Below are positions 1 through 49,168 of a DNA stretch of 64,000 nt, piece by piece. The notes under the pieces are model-generated. The model did not search any database. It saw only the letters and a program-made list of their open reading frames with translations, and was not told the origin of the DNA. Origin of the DNA: Candidatus Bathyarchaeota archaeon. GTDB lineage: Archaea; Thermoproteota; Bathyarchaeia; Bathyarchaeales; Bathycorpusculaceae. Both the position numbers and the translations under genes were made by a program. The DNA is taken from the NCBI GenBank assembly GCA_963811105.1, contig CAWEPZ010000011.1:384001-448000 (forward strand), read 5' to 3'. Numbering within the stretch: position 1 is the first letter of the stretch; each line of letters starts with the position of its first letter.

Positions 1-174
1 GTGCATGAGTTCCAAGCCATGGGTGTCTAAAAGGACAAATTTAGGCGGGATTTGAATTATGTTGCCGTCTGTTTCGCCCAGCTTGTTGCCTTTCAAGTCG
101 ATAAAATCATAGTGCTCCCTTGCAGAGAGGATTTTCTTTTGCATGATGAAATCGTTCGCTTCTAGAAGACTCAT
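1..174 (-). CDS. LURP-one-related/scramblase-like protein, N-terminal part (runs off window edge)
   Basis: Own translation from ATG at 174: MSLLEANDFIMQKKILSAREHYDFIDLKGNKLGETDGN...; open to position 1; resembles the LURP-one/Tubby-C2 N-terminus. Confidence 0.6.
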   Translation of the reverse strand, partial: MSLLEANDFIMQKKILSAREHYDFIDLKGNKLGETDGNIIQIPPKFVLLDTHGLELMH

Positions 175-41994: not shown

Positions 41995-44685
41995 TTATGG
42001 ATGTCTTCTTAGGATTAGCATGGTTGCTATGGCTATTGCAATGACTATTGCGACCCCTACGGCTACTATGTAGGTCATTAGGTCAGTAGTCGTTGCTATA
42101 TTTAATGGTGAGGCGGTTGGTGTTACTGTTGCTATTGGAGCGTTGACCACAGTTGTATATGTATCCGCAGATGAGCTTCCATACGCGTTGCTACCTGCGA
42201 AAGTTGCAATAATCTGGTAGTCCCCTGAGATAGTTGGTGTCCAAGTGAAATGGAATGTTCCCCTTACATCAGTAGTTGCATCTCCGATATGTACAGGATT
42301 ACCGTTTGGATCCACCGCATCCATTGAAACTGGCACTCCAGTAATTGTTATGTTATGATATATTCCATCGATTGGCATTTGCAGATTTAGGTGGTCCATC
42401 CATGTTGCCATTGAAGTATCAGAGATGCATGGTGTTCCTGCTTGCTGTGGTGACTCGTCCAACACCGTTCCAGAGATGACTACTCTTTCTCCAGCGATTA
42501 TTTGTGTTTGTGGTGCGGAAACTGTAGTTGTGCTTGGACCTTTGCCTACAACGTATAGCTTGCCGTCGTAGTTGCTGCCTGCTACAAAATAGTCGTCAGA
42601 TGCAGCCGCTACTGTCATGCGTGTACCGCTTATTTTCCATTGTAATACCCCGGTGGTAGCGTTTATGCAGTTTAGTCCCCAGCCTCTTGTCGGCGGAAGT
42701 GATGGAGTGTGCTCATTATTTGATACGTATAGCAGGCCGCCTATGACTTTGATTTCATTGGTTGAATACTCATTTGCGTATGTTCCGTTTTCGAGAGATG
42801 TATATGGAGTTTCAAATGGTAGAGCTGCGTCGACGTAGTGCCACATTATTGCGCCGTTGGTTTCATTAAGGGCCCAAACGCCAGTGTATCCAATCATGAA
42901 TAGGATGCCGTTGTATCCAGCCGTTGTGTACTGGGTAAATTCGCCCCAAGGATAGTCATTTATTGGAGTAGTCCAAAGCAGTGTTCCTGTACGTAGATCA
43001 TATGCTTTCCAGAATCCATGCTCAAAAAAACAGAAGTACTTTCCATTCTCCGATAGTGCAGTAGCCATGTTAAATGGTGTGGTGCCGTTTTCATCGCCAG
43101 GACTTGTTGTGTAGTTCCATAACATTTTTCCTGTTGTGTAGTCTATAGCATAGAGGTTTCCGCCGTAGAGGCCGCCGTAATAGAATCTGCTTGCAATTAT
43201 GCCAATGCCTGTTACGGGATCATAAGAGCCTAGGAGTGATTGTGCAGCGGCTGCCGTTGGAGGTATCCTGTAACTTGGCGGTATTGAAACACTGACGTTG
43301 CTAACTATTCGTGAAGAGAAGGATGTTGATGTTCCTTGTTCTGTCCAGTTGATTAAGAATCCGTTTGTATAAATGTTGTAGCTACTACCTTGGAATGTAA
43401 TCGTAGTGTAGTTAACGAATTGGAAGCTTAAGTAATAGCCATTGTAGAAAGCGCATTCAGCATTACCTGCCGATCCCAAACTTGGAATCGACATGTTTAA
43501 TGTTATGGCTCCGGTGTTTGGATTAACCTTGTATAGTCTGGCTGCAGTGGCGCCACCGCTTATTGCAAAGAGGTCAATACCATAGGCTGCATCTGCTGCT
43601 GCTCCGGGAACTGCTGTGTCTACGCCTGCCCAGTATGCGATGTGGTTTGGTGTAATTCCGCCATCGCCGGTTGGAATGTCATAGTATATTTTTCCTGTCT
43701 GCAAGTCATAGCATTCTGCCACTGATTGGGGAGTTTGACGGTATGTTCCGTTGACTAGTTGCGGCATTATTTTTGTAACAGTTGTATAGCATCTGCCCAT
43801 GTAGATAACGCTTGGAGTGTTGGCTGTGCCTGCACTGCTTGGGCCGACAACGTTGGCTTGATTTCCTACCTCGCCTCCAATGAGGCCTGACATTTGGCTC
43901 ACTTGACTCCACAGAATGTGCGGAGTGTTTACAGCTGGGATATAGGGACCATAGTAATTACTTGAGGTAGCTGATTGAGCACCGCCACTGTAACTCATCC
44001 ATGGAAAGTTTCCTGAGATTGTGCTCCATTCTCTGTTGTTTGGTTCTATTGGTCGACTCCAGTAATCTGTTGGCAGAGCTGAAGACCATGACATTACTTG
44101 GGCTTGTTGAACTGTAACATTCGTAATGGGTGTGATAACGGGAACAACATAGTCTGAGGGGTAAAAAAGCCATCCAGAGACTGGCGTTGCAGAGTAGTTT
44201 CCATTATTGTAGTATCCTGCCGGGAAGTATTCGCCGGGGAATGAGAATTGGAACTGGTATACACCAACTGTGTCGGGAACGTAGTTGAACCAGCTTGTGC
44301 CGTCTGCTACGTAGGATTGAAGGGTAACAGTTTGAGTTGAGAGGTCTGGTTTCGTTATTGTGACAACGTACCCATTCATGAATTTGCCTTCACCTGAGGG
44401 AGTTGTTATCCAAACGTTAACCAAAAGCAGTTGACCGACTCCGATGGGATTGGGTGAAGCACTAAGGAACGGTTGTGGATGAATTGTCCAATCAACCGTT
44501 GCGCCAGATGGTGGTGAAGTAGGTCCTACATAGCCATTTTGTGTTGGAGCTTGACCGTGCGCTAGTTCTTGCCCTTGCACTGGTACGAATGAGAAGAGTA
44601 TAGAAGCCAGTAATAGAGAAGTGAGGATCGCAAAAGATGTTTTTGATGTGTTCAATGAATTTACTAAATTTCTCAAAATATTCAT
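41995..44685 (-). CDS. Cell-surface PQQ-like beta-propeller protein (paralog of 25540-28107)
   Basis: Same architecture; shared LPTDYW.RP, PIDGIYHNIT, ATFAG..YGSS and ATTTDLMTYIVA segments. Confidence 0.85.
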   Translation of the reverse strand: MNILRNLVNSLNTSKTSFAILTSLLLASILFSFVPVQGQELAHGQAPTQNGYVGPTSPPSGATVDWTIHPQPFLSASPNPIGVGQLLLVNVWITTPSGEGKFMNGYVVTITKPDLSTQTVTLQSYVADGTSWFNYVPDTVGVYQFQFSFPGEYFPAGYYNNGNYSATPVSGWLFYPSDYVVPVITPITNVTVQQAQVMSWSSALPTDYWSRPIEPNNREWSTISGNFPWMSYSGGAQSATSSNYYGPYIPAVNTPHILWSQVSQMSGLIGGEVGNQANVVGPSSAGTANTPSVIYMGRCYTTVTKIMPQLVNGTYRQTPQSVAECYDLQTGKIYYDIPTGDGGITPNHIAYWAGVDTAVPGAAADAAYGIDLFAISGGATAARLYKVNPNTGAITLNMSIPSLGSAGNAECAFYNGYYLSFQFVNYTTITFQGSSYNIYTNGFLINWTEQGTSTSFSSRIVSNVSVSIPPSYRIPPTAAAAQSLLGSYDPVTGIGIIASRFYYGGLYGGNLYAIDYTTGKMLWNYTTSPGDENGTTPFNMATALSENGKYFCFFEHGFWKAYDLRTGTLLWTTPINDYPWGEFTQYTTAGYNGILFMIGYTGVWALNETNGAIMWHYVDAALPFETPYTSLENGTYANEYSTNEIKVIGGLLYVSNNEHTPSLPPTRGWGLNCINATTGVLQWKISGTRMTVAAASDDYFVAGSNYDGKLYVVGKGPSTTTVSAPQTQIIAGERVVISGTVLDESPQQAGTPCISDTSMATWMDHLNLQMPIDGIYHNITITGVPVSMDAVDPNGNPVHIGDATTDVRGTFHFTWTPTISGDYQIIATFAGSNAYGSSSADTYTTVVNAPIATVTPTASPLNIATTTDLMTYIVAVGVAIVIAIAIATMLILRRHP

Positions 44686-44857: not shown

Positions 44858-45415
44858 ATGCTCACCAACAAGAAACATAAGCTCTCATGCAAAATCTGGA
44901 TTCAATACAAGGACAAACCATTAATAGGCAAAGGCGGGGCAGAAATTCTTGAAGCCATAGAAAAAGAGAATTCAATTTCCAAGGCTGCAGAGACCTTGGG
45001 AATGTCTTATCGTTATGTTTGGAATTATTTGCAAGATATTCAAAAAAACCTCGATGAGCGGATAGTTGAAACTTACAAAGGTGGAAAAGCCGGAGGCGGA
45101 GGCGCAAAGCTGACAGATTTAGGAAGAGGTTTGCTTGGTGAGTATAAGCAAGTTGAGATTTACTTGGCGAAGGTCTTATCCAATTCAGGAAATTTGGAGG
45201 TGAAAGGTATGAAGTTAAGTGCAAGGAATCGCTTTAAGGGAAAAGTAGTTGCTGTTGAAAAAGGCGTTATTACCGCAAAAGTAAAGGTTGAGGTAAAAAT
45301 GCCTATTACTGTTACGGCAGTCATAACGAAAGACGCAGTTGAAGACTTAGACTTAAAAGTAGGAGACGAAGTCGAAGCAATTGTTAAATCAACAGGAGTA
45401 ATGATTGCCAAATAA
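44858..45415 (+). CDS. modE: ModE-family regulator (HTH + TOBE/Mop)
   Basis: SISKAAETLGMSYRYVW, GGKAGGGGAKLT, then LSARN...IT...L.L..G...A.VKS. Confidence 0.93.
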   Translation: MLTNKKHKLSCKIWIQYKDKPLIGKGGAEILEAIEKENSISKAAETLGMSYRYVWNYLQDIQKNLDERIVETYKGGKAGGGGAKLTDLGRGLLGEYKQVEIYLAKVLSNSGNLEVKGMKLSARNRFKGKVVAVEKGVITAKVKVEVKMPITVTAVITKDAVEDLDLKVGDEVEAIVKSTGVMIAK

Positions 45416-45616: not shown

Positions 45617-46168
45617 TTACTCTACGACGTACCTATAAGTAATATGTTCGCCTGCAGTTGAACTCTTTCGAGTAATTTTTAAGATGTCACCTGGTTTTGC
45701 GCCTATAACTTTCACCGCTGGATCGCCTGATTTTATCTGTGGCATCTGGTATGGCTTAACTCTGTATTGTGCAAGAAGTTGGTTCTTTTCTTTTTCGCTT
45801 AATATTTCATGAAGGGGCACCAGTGCATGCTCGAATATGTCAAAGACTGGAAAAGATTTGGGAAGCAGCTCGACTTGTTTCTTTTTTGCACCAAGTTTTA
45901 CCGCGTGCGTGTAGCGTCCTTCCGTTACTACTATGGCGCGGTCAATTTCTTTCTCTTTCATTATCTTGTAGAGCGTGTTCATAGCGGCTATGCCGACGGT
46001 TGCTTCACCTAAAATGCACCAGATTATAGCTTTCTCTTTGTCCTGTGGAATGTCAATAATATAGGCTATCGCACCTTCAAACGATTCTTTCTCAAGAAGT
46101 TTGTATCGTCTTAATTTAATTAGGACTTCAGCTTTCCGTTCTTCGATTGTTTCTATTTTAGTACTCAA
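45617..46168 (-). CDS. rpo5: RNA polymerase subunit Rpo5/H with RPB5-like N-terminal domain
   Basis: C-terminal HALVPLHEILS..MPQIKSGDP..GAKPGDILKITRKS.TAG..ITYRYV plus about 105 extra N-terminal residues. Confidence 0.92.
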   Translation of the reverse strand: MSTKIETIEERKAEVLIKLRRYKLLEKESFEGAIAYIIDIPQDKEKAIIWCILGEATVGIAAMNTLYKIMKEKEIDRAIVVTEGRYTHAVKLGAKKKQVELLPKSFPVFDIFEHALVPLHEILSEKEKNQLLAQYRVKPYQMPQIKSGDPAVKVIGAKPGDILKITRKSSTAGEHITYRYVVE

Positions 46169-46326
46169 TTATAAACCCTCAATAATTGGGAATTACGCGA
46201 AAGTCATAACGAACTATTGCCCTTAAACTTTTCCCTATAAAAATAGCGATGCTAAAAAAATCTAGCCGAGCGGCAAATTTGAGAGCTCATAAAATAACAA
46301 TAAATACCTTGATAAACTCTGGGCAC

Positions 46327-46905
46327 CTAGGCTTTTACCAATTTAAATCCTATTTTTGTACCCATTCCATAAGCAAAAGCTAAGTTAATTATCATTATTG
46401 CCATAGCTTCAAGATGCCGTGCAGCTTTCAGAGGACCACAATCAATCGGGTCAAAACCTATGTCTTGTGTTAATTGGGCTACTGTTTGTTTAGCTTTCAA
46501 ATCGTCGCCAGCAATGAAAGCCGTTAATTGTTCTTTTCCAATTTTGCCCTTGTTTTGGTTAGCTGCGAACACTGTGTTGAACGCTTTTACTACTTTTGCT
46601 TTTGGCAGTTTTTTCTGAGTTTCTTCAGCTGAGGAAGTGGTGCAGCTTATTGCTAACTCTGATTTTGCTCCTACTGCGTTCATAACATCGATTACTATTT
46701 TCTCATCCGCATATGCTCTTATTTCTTCTATAGCATTGTTTGCATTTTCGTATGGCACTGCAAGAATTATTATGTCTCCCCATTTTGCCGCATTAGCAAC
46801 TGATTCTGCAGGGTCTCGGTGACCAAAACGTGTTTCGTGCTTAGCGCTTAAGCCACTGCATAATGCATTGCCAACATGGCCTTTTCCTATAATTGCGATT
46901 TTCAC
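46327..46905 (-). CDS. NADPH-dependent F420 reductase-like oxidoreductase
   Basis: IIGKGHVG, ILAVP, IDVMN, VVKAFNT, AGDD, GFDPIDCG.L. Confidence 0.88.
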   Translation of the reverse strand: MKIAIIGKGHVGNALCSGLSAKHETRFGHRDPAESVANAAKWGDIIILAVPYENANNAIEEIRAYADEKIVIDVMNAVGAKSELAISCTTSSAEETQKKLPKAKVVKAFNTVFAANQNKGKIGKEQLTAFIAGDDLKAKQTVAQLTQDIGFDPIDCGPLKAARHLEAMAIMIINLAFAYGMGTKIGFKLVKA

Positions 46906-48172: not shown

Positions 48173-49168
48173 TCAAATTACCTTTAATAAATAAATCTGT
48201 TTTGAATTTAAGAGACTAACGGAAGGTGAAAGCTGACTTTTCTTTTTCACTTTTAAAATAAAAACAAGTGCTGCCACTACAATAATGGGTGCTGCAACAA
48301 CTAGCACAATTAGCCATGTTGGCACTGGCGTTGTAGGGGGTGAGGCGGGACTATGCATTAAGGGGTATTGGTCTTGGTTTAGAACGTCTATTATGTATGG
48401 GGTGTCGCCGATTCCATCATGGTTTGGGTCGGTTCCGTTATAGTTGCTCCAGTAATTGCCGATTTTGCCGTTATCCCAAGAATGCCGTGCTTCACTGAAA
48501 TTGTATACTTTGCACACACAACCGGTAAGTTGTACTTCATTTTCGATAAAGCTGTTTTGGCTAATTGTTATGTCTGAAGGTATGTTTCCTGCGTTGTGGT
48601 CGATTTGTTCAAAACCAAAGAAGAGCCCTTGTCTATTTTCTGCAATATAGTTTTTTGTTACGTTATTAGCTGAGCCCGACAGCAGCACACCTACGATATT
48701 GTTTGAGAAACTGTTGTCTATAATGGTGTTGTGTGCTGTGCGGATGTAAATTCCTATGCTGAAATTGCTGATATTTAGGTTCTTGACTGTTACTCCGCTT
48801 ACTGTTTTGTCAAAATCTAAACCAATAACGTACTGAACAGTTATAGTCGCATTAGGACCTAAACCCAGTATTATCTGAGATTCTATATCCATAGCGGTAA
48901 GTGGACCCATCAGCTTGAAGCCATCACCGTTAAGAGTTACGTTGCTTTTCTGAACAAGAATCGGATCAAACACATTGTCTGTAAACGTGTAGACATCTCC
49001 ATCGCGCAGAATGGGAACATTTGCTGGACTCACGGTTCCATTTGGTAGAATAAAAATTGTCGTTAAAGTTACTTGTGAGACAGCAGGCTCTAAAAACATT
49101 AGGCACGATAAACTCGTCAATAGAAAAACGGTTAAACAAATCTTATGCCCAAACAATTTTCTTGCCAT
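48173..49168 (-). CDS. NosD/CASH beta-helix surface protein
   Basis: Signal peptide; parallel beta-helix repeats; GNYWSNYNG.D..DGIGDTPY; C-terminal TM. Confidence 0.88.
   Translation of the reverse strand: MARKLFGHKICLTVFLLTSLSCLMFLEPAVSQVTLTTIFILPNGTVSPANVPILRDGDVYTFTDNVFDPILVQKSNVTLNGDGFKLMGPLTAMDIESQIILGLGPNATITVQYVIGLDFDKTVSGVTVKNLNISNFSIGIYIRTAHNTIIDNSFSNNIVGVLLSGSANNVTKNYIAENRQGLFFGFEQIDHNAGNIPSDITISQNSFIENEVQLTGCVCKVYNFSEARHSWDNGKIGNYWSNYNGTDPNHDGIGDTPYIIDVLNQDQYPLMHSPASPPTTPVPTWLIVLVVAAPIIVVAALVFILKVKKKSQLSPSVSLLNSKQIYLLKVI

Follow-up and report, generated by a model that had tools for sequence, protein, structure and literature searches.

A two-domain Rpo5 in Bathyarchaeia with an apparently inactivated Mrr-like domain, a candidate counterpart of the RPB5 jaw

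The rpo5 (rpoH) gene of a Candidatus Bathyarchaeota archaeon codes for a protein in which an alpha/beta domain of about 105 residues, hereafter the N domain, stands ahead of the Rpb5_C assembly domain. The gene occupies 45617..46168 on the minus strand (183 codons and a stop) of the window, by which we mean the whole stretch of 64,000 nucleotides analysed here (positions 384,001 to 448,000 of contig CAWEPZ010000011.1, assembly GCA_963811105.1). It was assigned from the open reading frame (ORF) listing, from Pfam and NCBIfam matches, and from its standing as the sole Rpb5_C gene of the genome. The best reading of the data, which we consider likely though well short of certain, is that the product is a real lower-jaw subunit of the RNA polymerase and shares a fused origin with eukaryotic RPB5. 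A preliminary description of this DNA, made from the sequence alone, had reported a 183-residue ORF with the eukaryote-type two-domain layout. There is indeed one such ORF, the peptide quoted from it corresponds to residues 57-91, and the N domain is followed directly by Rpb5_C in one polypeptide.

RPB5 is common to all three nuclear RNA polymerases; with its N-terminal jaw it contacts downstream DNA and gives regulators a place to dock. According to the passages on this subunit in two earlier papers, the jaw or N-terminal domain is missing from archaeal Rpo5/RpoH (PMC2675907, 2009; PMC6690254, 2018), and the abstract of a third says that archaeal RpoH is without an N-terminal extension (PMC3906176, 2014). 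In the family listing of a 2012 survey of PD-(D/E)XK proteins, Rpb5_N appears as 'Eukaryota' only (PMC3424549). A Bathyarchaeota Rpo5 was among the small archaeal subunits modelled in a 2026 survey, whose passages on Rpb5, Rpo5 or the jaw, as far as consulted, make no mention of a long form (PMC13257274). Full-text searches brought up no account of an archaeal Rpo5 with two domains, and an earlier report may exist in supplements or subscription papers. Proteins of the long form are already present in public databases, where they are named RpoH.

The C-terminal part of the protein (residues 109-181; 45626..45844, minus strand) matched Pfam Rpb5_C (PF01191) over profile positions 1-73 of 73, with an E-value of 3e-30 (104.2 bits against a cut-off of 23.5), and scored 105.6 bits with the NCBIfam RpoH equivalog NF007129 (cut-off 83). 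Its best sequence matches in the PDB were archaeal RpoH chains (4qiw_H, 2e-24; 36ro_H, 8e-24). The domain is orthologous to canonical archaeal Rpo5/RpoH (4qiw_H, 8cro_H, 7ok0_H and 2waq_H; phmmer E-values of 2e-24 to 4e-16, and 45-56% identity in structural alignments), which, in contrast, is 75-84 residues long and lacks the N domain. The assembly (3.49 Mb, 15 contigs, 96.65% complete) held exactly one Rpb5_C match above the cut-off, namely the window gene; three further matches (E-values of 0.07-0.7) lay inside long unrelated ORFs. The N domain was likewise single-copy. It had been suggested earlier that the protein could be an alternative subunit, and that a second, short rpo5 might stand beside rpoB. 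No such gene was found there: the rpoB-rpoA-L30e-NusA cluster lies on contig C1, and it is a DNA methylase gene that precedes rpoB. The presence of a single Rpb5_C gene in a near-complete genome argues that it codes for the Rpo5 of the polymerase and not for an alternative subunit, and we infer that the 183-residue protein is the single Rpo5/RpoH of the enzyme.

The N domain (residues 1-105; 45854..46168, minus strand) is conserved well beyond this genome. Full-length matches were found in the own genome and in each of the 20 further genomes that represented its order in the sample, and the 21 order-level sequences could be aligned from their first residues, with the frame open and with 38-91% identity to the window protein. 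The median ratio of non-synonymous to synonymous substitution rates (dN/dS) against close relatives was about 0.04 for the N domain and about 0.02 for the C domain, with dS saturated. Thus, both domains of the long Rpo5 are under strong purifying selection, and the N domain cannot be put down to a chance extension of the ORF. The gene begins with a TTG codon (46166-46168), which in the ORF list is the first possible start downstream of the preceding stop codon. A GAGGG run (46176-46180), read from the sequence, lies 7 nucleotides 5' of the TTG (the two together span 46166..46180, minus strand) and may act as a Shine-Dalgarno-like element. Of 80 loci, 26 were removed beforehand because they gave no gap-free alignment or fell below the identity filter; all 54 that remained have kept the TTG.

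These observations bear on the possibility that the cell uses an internal start and makes an ordinary RpoH of about 80 residues, the upstream part being untranslated or a separate product. In keeping with such a start, RpoH models of only 81 and 91 residues stand in NCBI records that belong to the clusters of two Bathyarchaeia relatives, and among the sequencing runs listed as holding the rpo5 stretch, none is on record as RNA, which we count on the same side. However, the low dN/dS of the N part at saturated synonymous sites, the conserved TTG with its GAGGG run, and the open frame that is alignable from residue 1 in 21 of 21 order-level sequences all speak for translation of the whole, as does the confident folding of the N domain alone (see below). 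We consider an internal start very unlikely.

AlphaFold2, run without templates, gave a predicted local distance difference test (pLDDT) score of 82.4 for the full-length protein and of 90.5 for the N domain alone. The N domain was modelled as a helix, three strands, a helix, a strand, a helix and a strand, which is the topology of the PD-(D/E)XK core. Residues 57-91 (45896..46000, minus strand) comprise, from HMMER alignments to RPB5, the turn with VG(I/V), then helix 2 and strand 4, and lastly the T-x-x-A-K with which helix 3 opens. Within alignment A1, G59 and T87 were nearly invariant, T87 being kept in at least 90% of the sequences.

In Pfam, the N domain matched NA-iREase1 (PF22722; E-value 1.6e-6, 28.5 bits against a cut-off of 27) and Mrr_cat (PF04471; 1.8e-5, 25.3 bits against a cut-off of 21). 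We compared the N-domain alignment of the own order (A2) with one of 28 true Mrr-type domains (A4), and hhalign returned a probability of 99.2% with an E-value of 3e-19. In A4, D63, D67, Q80 and K82 were invariant. The Rpo5 columns that face these catalytic residues in the hhalign alignment were variable, or read 'IWCI' opposite 'VQCK', so that the catalytic D ... (Q/E)xK residues of Mrr_cat are absent from the Rpo5 N domain. On the evidence of the model, then, the N domain is predicted to be a PD-(D/E)XK fold devoid of catalytic residues, that is, a dead nuclease. NA-iREase1 is a family associated with NACHT/STAND nucleoside triphosphatases. No NACHT domain was found in the long Rpo5 or in the scanned neighbours, and the NA-iREase1 model probably responds to dead Mrr-like domains of any kind. 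The domain shares with the Mrr_cat and NA-iREase1 nucleases the fold, Pfam scores above both cut-offs, and the RGY, VG(I/V) and FT..A motifs; it differs from them in lacking the catalytic D...D...(Q/E)xK residues and any NACHT or defence partner, and in its fusion to an assembly domain of the polymerase.

That Pfam matches it to families of restriction endonucleases would favour the view that the protein is not a polymerase subunit at all, but a defence or DNA-repair nuclease with a borrowed Rpb5_C-like domain. Yet the catalytic D and (Q/E)xK residues are missing, no defence genes were found beside rpo5 among the scanned neighbours, and the C domain scores above the RpoH equivalog cut-off. Moreover, were the sole Rpb5_C gene of this near-complete genome that of a nuclease, the polymerase would lack Rpo5. 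This view seems to us hardly credible.

Several lines of evidence relate the protein to RPB5. Using phmmer, eukaryotic RPB5 chains were aligned to residues ~53-182 in one collinear stretch that runs across the domain junction (for example, residues 72-205 of 7eu0_E, E-value 3.3e-21, with a net length difference of only 4 residues), which bears out the alignment to RPB5 previously made by eye. When the N part alone was the query, the best PDB match was an RPB5 chain, 9mu7_E, and the match was weak (E-value 0.22). The seven top sequences found in the PDB with A2 were RPB5 (E-values of 9.5e-5 to 2.6e-3), and a broader N-domain profile made from 25 diverse archaeal long forms (A5) reached 11 RPB5 sequences (5.7e-9 to 2.1e-3), including those of fly (5.7e-9), human (1.6e-8), plant (1.1e-6) and yeast (1.8e-4). 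No nuclease was among the PDB matches of A2 or A5 at E <= 10. Conversely, as a control, the true Mrr profile A4 found LlaBIII (1.8e-6) and AF1548 (3.8e-4) in the PDB, and no RPB5 at E <= 10. By profile search, the archaeal N domain is thus homologous to the RPB5 N domain, and in sequence space it forms the bridge from Mrr_cat to Rpb5_N. Opposite the TPSAK stretch (TPSA motif) of RPB5, the alignments place the T-x-x-A-K with which helix 3 starts. In addition, the named clusters nearest to residues 1-105 by language-model features were Rpb5_N of giant viruses and of eukaryotes (scores of 0.81-0.86), which we take as a lead only.

The superposition of a model on RPB5, proposed in the preliminary description, gave a concordant result for the protein as a whole. 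A Foldseek search with the full model placed two-domain RPB5 chains at ranks 1-32 (30 eukaryotic and 2 from African swine fever virus, ASFV), with TM-scores over the query (TMq) of 0.63-0.77 and a best E-value of 4e-15. Short archaeal RpoH chains appeared only from rank 33 (TMq of 0.36-0.38). The predicted model thus agrees with RPB5 in fold and in how its two domains pack together. Against eukaryotic RPB5 the full model reached TMq values of 0.72-0.77 over ~185-206 columns. Like the archaeal protein, eukaryotic RPB5, or RPABC1 (PDB 1dzf, 8uhd_E, 7vba_E, 9mu7_E and 7eu0_E), has an N domain followed by Rpb5_C in one chain of ~180-215 residues, and its N domain is also a PD-(D/E)XK fold without catalytic residues. 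In contrast to it, the archaeal N domain has only about 105 residues, falls below the Pfam Rpb5_N cut-off and is still recognisable as Mrr_cat; moreover, RPB5 is used by Pol I, II and III, whereas the long Rpo5 would serve a single polymerase. The giant-virus RPB5 of ASFV (PDB 8q3b_E and 8q3k_E) has the same two-domain layout (TMq of 0.63-0.64 over ~200 columns), but it is only 17-18% identical, and such viral proteins accompany eukaryote-type polymerases.

The long form is common in Bathyarchaeia. In the 80 closest loci, taken from a species-level genome collection, the N domain was 82-97% identical to that of the window; the titles of 75 name Bathyarchaeota, Bathyarchaeia or Bathycorpusculum, and those of the other five Nitrososphaerota (1), Crenarchaeota (1), Thermoproteota (1) and 'uncultured archaeon' (2). 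This search (alignment A6) reached only the own lineage of the window, and the names outside it come from cluster labels. In a census with the full-length profile A3 (E <= 1e-10), 80 of 151 Bathyarchaeia genomes had a single ORF across both domains, including 34 of the 34 genomes of the own order; one of these 80 ORFs was cut by a contig end and one had an insertion between the domains. A weak match was found in one genome and no match in eight, and the genomes with the short form only are considered below. The split between long and short forms within Bathyarchaeia follows families. At the level of the phylum, no match outside the own order covered the N domain, among the matches listed.

In a library of 1.84 billion representative proteins, A2 matched 446 at E <= 0.001. 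Among the best 150 of these, 30 also had an Rpb5_C-like domain, as detected with a hidden Markov model built here, and the N domains of these 30 were 16-29% identical to that of the window. The cluster of one of the two-domain proteins, P0163, contains a 188-residue member named by NCBI as RpoH of a Heimdallarchaeota metagenome-assembled genome, which aligns with RPB5 over residues 42-186; the occurrence in Heimdallarchaeota rests on this one cluster label. Two other clusters of two-domain proteins carry Bathyarchaeia labels.

We also noted that some Bathyarchaeia genomes (G257, G053, G315, G013 and G125) have two or three two-domain rpo5 copies, which may be paralogues or the product of mixed bins; the three of G257 code for 179-182 residues and lie on different contigs. 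As for annotation, in the clusters of P0144 and P0150 the NCBI models of RpoH are 81, 81, 72 (partial) and 91 residues long, and members from other sources, in the same 90%-identity clusters, have 182-191 residues. In some public annotations the N domain thus seems to have been lost at start-site calling, and short public models, consisting of the last 81-91 residues, may be one reason why the long form has gone unremarked.

A rival reading is that some archaea joined a dead Mrr-like domain to RpoH in an event separate from the one that produced RPB5. If so, the domain need not work as a jaw, and the two N domains would be separate offshoots of the large Mrr_cat family. A number of results favour such a convergence of architecture, or otherwise weigh against a shared origin with RPB5. 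The search with Rpb5_N that the preliminary description had proposed did not give the expected match: PF03871 (cut-off 27 bits) had no match to the window protein at E <= 1, and it was Mrr_cat and NA-iREase1 that were matched instead. A genome-wide search with PF03871 likewise did not pick the rpo5 ORF, its sole match being a 129-residue ORF on contig C2 (E-value 0.03). Of 37 archaeal long forms, only 4 touched PF03871 (best E-value 0.0027), whereas 37 matched Mrr_cat and 36 NA-iREase1. In the library of 1.84 billion proteins, the own-order profile gave true Mrr nucleases 40-50 bits, as compared with 21-26 bits for RPB5 chains in the PDB search. By raw score, then, the N domain is nearer to Mrr_cat than to RPB5, in line with the strong hhalign match to true Mrr domains, and the motifs that it has in common with RPB5 (RGY, VGI/V and T..A) are also Mrr_cat motifs.

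Nor does the fold decide in favour of RPB5. With the N domain alone, the top Foldseek match was EndoMS (2e-5), followed by RPB5 (3.3e-4) and MspJI. Comparison by VIA gave Z-scores of 10.5 for EndoMS, 10.2 for AF1548 and 9.9 for human RPB5 (98 aligned residues, rmsd, the root-mean-square deviation, of 3.0-3.2), a tie in that all three lie within 1. Taken by itself, the modelled fold of the N domain fits nucleases as well as it fits RPB5. The eukaryotic domain is also some 25 positions longer (chain positions 7..133, ~127, against 3..105 of the model), and the training of AlphaFold included RPB5 structures, which may favour an RPB5-like packing of the domains in the full-length model. As for distribution, 62 of the 151 genomes in the census had the short form only (profile positions ~100-181, in ORFs of 75-154 residues). 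Given such a patchy distribution, within Bathyarchaeia and in archaea at large, repeated fusion or transfer is possible. Finally, the N domain recurs ahead of a Cys-rich C-terminal domain, and Rpb5_C can be preceded by three copies of it; its presence in other fusions and copy numbers marks it as a mobile module.

Other results, however, are harder to reconcile with independent fusions. The archaeal profiles reach RPB5 (down to an E-value of 5.7e-9) and no PDB nuclease, and the true Mrr profile does the reverse; the order of the domains is the same and the junction is collinear with that of RPB5; the catalytic residues have been lost from both the archaeal and the RPB5 N domains; and the long form has a Heimdallarchaeota label in one cluster. 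We therefore regard convergence, with the two N domains as separate offshoots of Mrr_cat, as unlikely, and a shared origin with RPB5 appears better supported by the sequence comparisons than an independent fusion. Two earlier statements can be qualified in this light. Regarding the possibility that the N domain is closer to independently fused Mrr-type nucleases, the closeness to Mrr stands, but independent fusion is argued against by A4 missing RPB5 and A5 reaching it. Regarding the claim of an archaeal RNA polymerase with a eukaryote-type jaw, homology to the RPB5 N domain and the superposition on RPB5 agree with it, but a match to the Rpb5_N family is not seen.

Domains like the N domain of Rpo5 also occur in other proteins. 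A separate family of ~180-280 residues combines an Rpo5-N-like dead Mrr domain with a Cys-rich C-terminal domain that ends in a conserved 'ISDNADFH' and belongs to no Pfam family. Its members include proteins encoded in two Bathyarchaeia genomes of family f57 (L126, 588-1343, minus strand; L127, 606-1325, minus strand) and the library proteins P0152, P0159, P0161, P0166, P0167, P0177, P0183, P0185, P0186, P0201 and P0217. In both genomes checked, the Cys-rich protein co-occurs with a short Rpo5 encoded elsewhere. Possibly, this family could represent a jaw-like factor acting in trans. In P0184 (436 residues) and P0200 (481 residues), two or three tandem dead Mrr-like domains were seen by eye before Rpb5_C; for P0184, Pfam found Mrr_cat in two stretches and Rpb5_C at residues 360-427.

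If the long Rpo5 is a lower-jaw subunit with a fused origin in common with RPB5, its two halves would have distinct roles. As in all archaeal and eukaryotic polymerases, the Rpb5_C assembly domain would anchor Rpo5 to the C-terminal part of the largest subunit, which the C domain of Rpo5/RPB5 is described as binding in the sections of two papers that deal with this contact (PMC2675907, PMC6690254). The N domain, presumably derived from a restriction nuclease of the Mrr type and now without the catalytic D...(Q/E)xK residues, would be the counterpart of the eukaryotic RPB5 'jaw'. Its likely position is a groove left open in Sulfolobus: as described in the part of the structural study concerned with Rpo5, the missing jaw leaves there an open, positively charged groove in which Rpo13 docks (Korkhin et al. 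2009, PMC2675907). Rpo13 of Sulfolobales is a possible functional analogue of the Rpo5 N domain, although the two are unrelated, Rpo13 being a helix-turn-helix protein with a gene of its own. Filling this groove, the N domain would turn the T-x-x-A-K start of helix 3 towards downstream DNA, as a putative contact, and it may also offer a surface for factors. The partners of the eukaryotic jaw that are named in reviews (TFIIB, HBx and others) differ in this respect, having no known counterpart in the Bathyarchaeia archaeon. A single event in archaea, in which RpoH acquired a dead Mrr-like domain, would have given rise to both the archaeal long form and eukaryotic RPB5. Prediction of a complex between the N domain (A2) and residues 880-1277 of RpoA scored 0.00 in each of two runs with unfolded controls, and the result is evidence neither way.

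The polymerase genes of this genome have features of their own. There are two full-length rpoB genes, 93% identical to each other: one on C1 (L039, 4302-7670, plus strand), which heads rpoB-rpoA-L30e-NusA, and one on C11 (L038, 4239-7610, plus strand), which stands alone behind a Cdc48-like ATPase gene. Among 17 genomes sampled from the family, 15 had one rpoB match, and two matches were found in the own genome (G000) and in one other. The second rpoB may be a real paralogue or reflect a mixed assembly (the contamination estimate is 4.3%). In many archaea rpoA is split into A' and A''; here it is one unsplit gene (L039, 7673-11506, plus strand) that codes for 1277 residues with Rpb1 domains 1-5.

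In archaea rpoH is usually, though not by definition, found at the head of the rpoB-rpoA operon. The gene described here stands, in contrast to the canonical rpoH-rpoB-rpoA arrangement, between unrelated genes on contig C11, with rpoB-rpoA on another contig, as had been claimed when it was first called a solitary gene outside the rpo operon. On one side lies a convergent gene for a ModE-like regulator with HTH_1 and TOBE domains (44858-45415, plus strand), and on the other a gene for an F420_oxidored protein (46327-46905, minus strand). The adjacency of the ModE-like gene was kept in 68 of 100 related loci, family-level relatives included; as it lies tail-to-tail with rpo5, it is not an operon partner. 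Further away, two genes code for large proteins that appear to be secreted or anchored at the surface: one of 896 residues (41995-44685, minus strand), with a signal-like N terminus, a C-terminal hydrophobic tail and weak matches to PQQ_2 / beta-propeller and Ig-like domains, and a NosD-like one of 331 residues (48173-49168, minus strand).

An archaeal Rpo5 with a homologous dead-nuclease domain would move the origin of the jaw back into archaea. Its N domain would provide a sequence bridge between Mrr nucleases and Rpb5_N, and the long Rpo5 a simpler setting for studying the function of the jaw. There is also a wider picture, for and against which we see an even balance. The jaw half of RPB5 would not be a eukaryotic invention, but an Mrr-type nuclease that archaea disarmed and welded to RpoH. 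Roughly half of Bathyarchaeia, and some Asgard lineages, would have kept the product as their usual Rpo5, and the eukaryotic polymerases would have inherited it. In Bathyarchaeia, a eukaryote-like lower jaw would grip downstream DNA, and relatives with a short Rpo5 may supply the domain in trans, through the Cys-rich protein of ~240-250 residues, which would then be an undescribed accessory factor of the polymerase.

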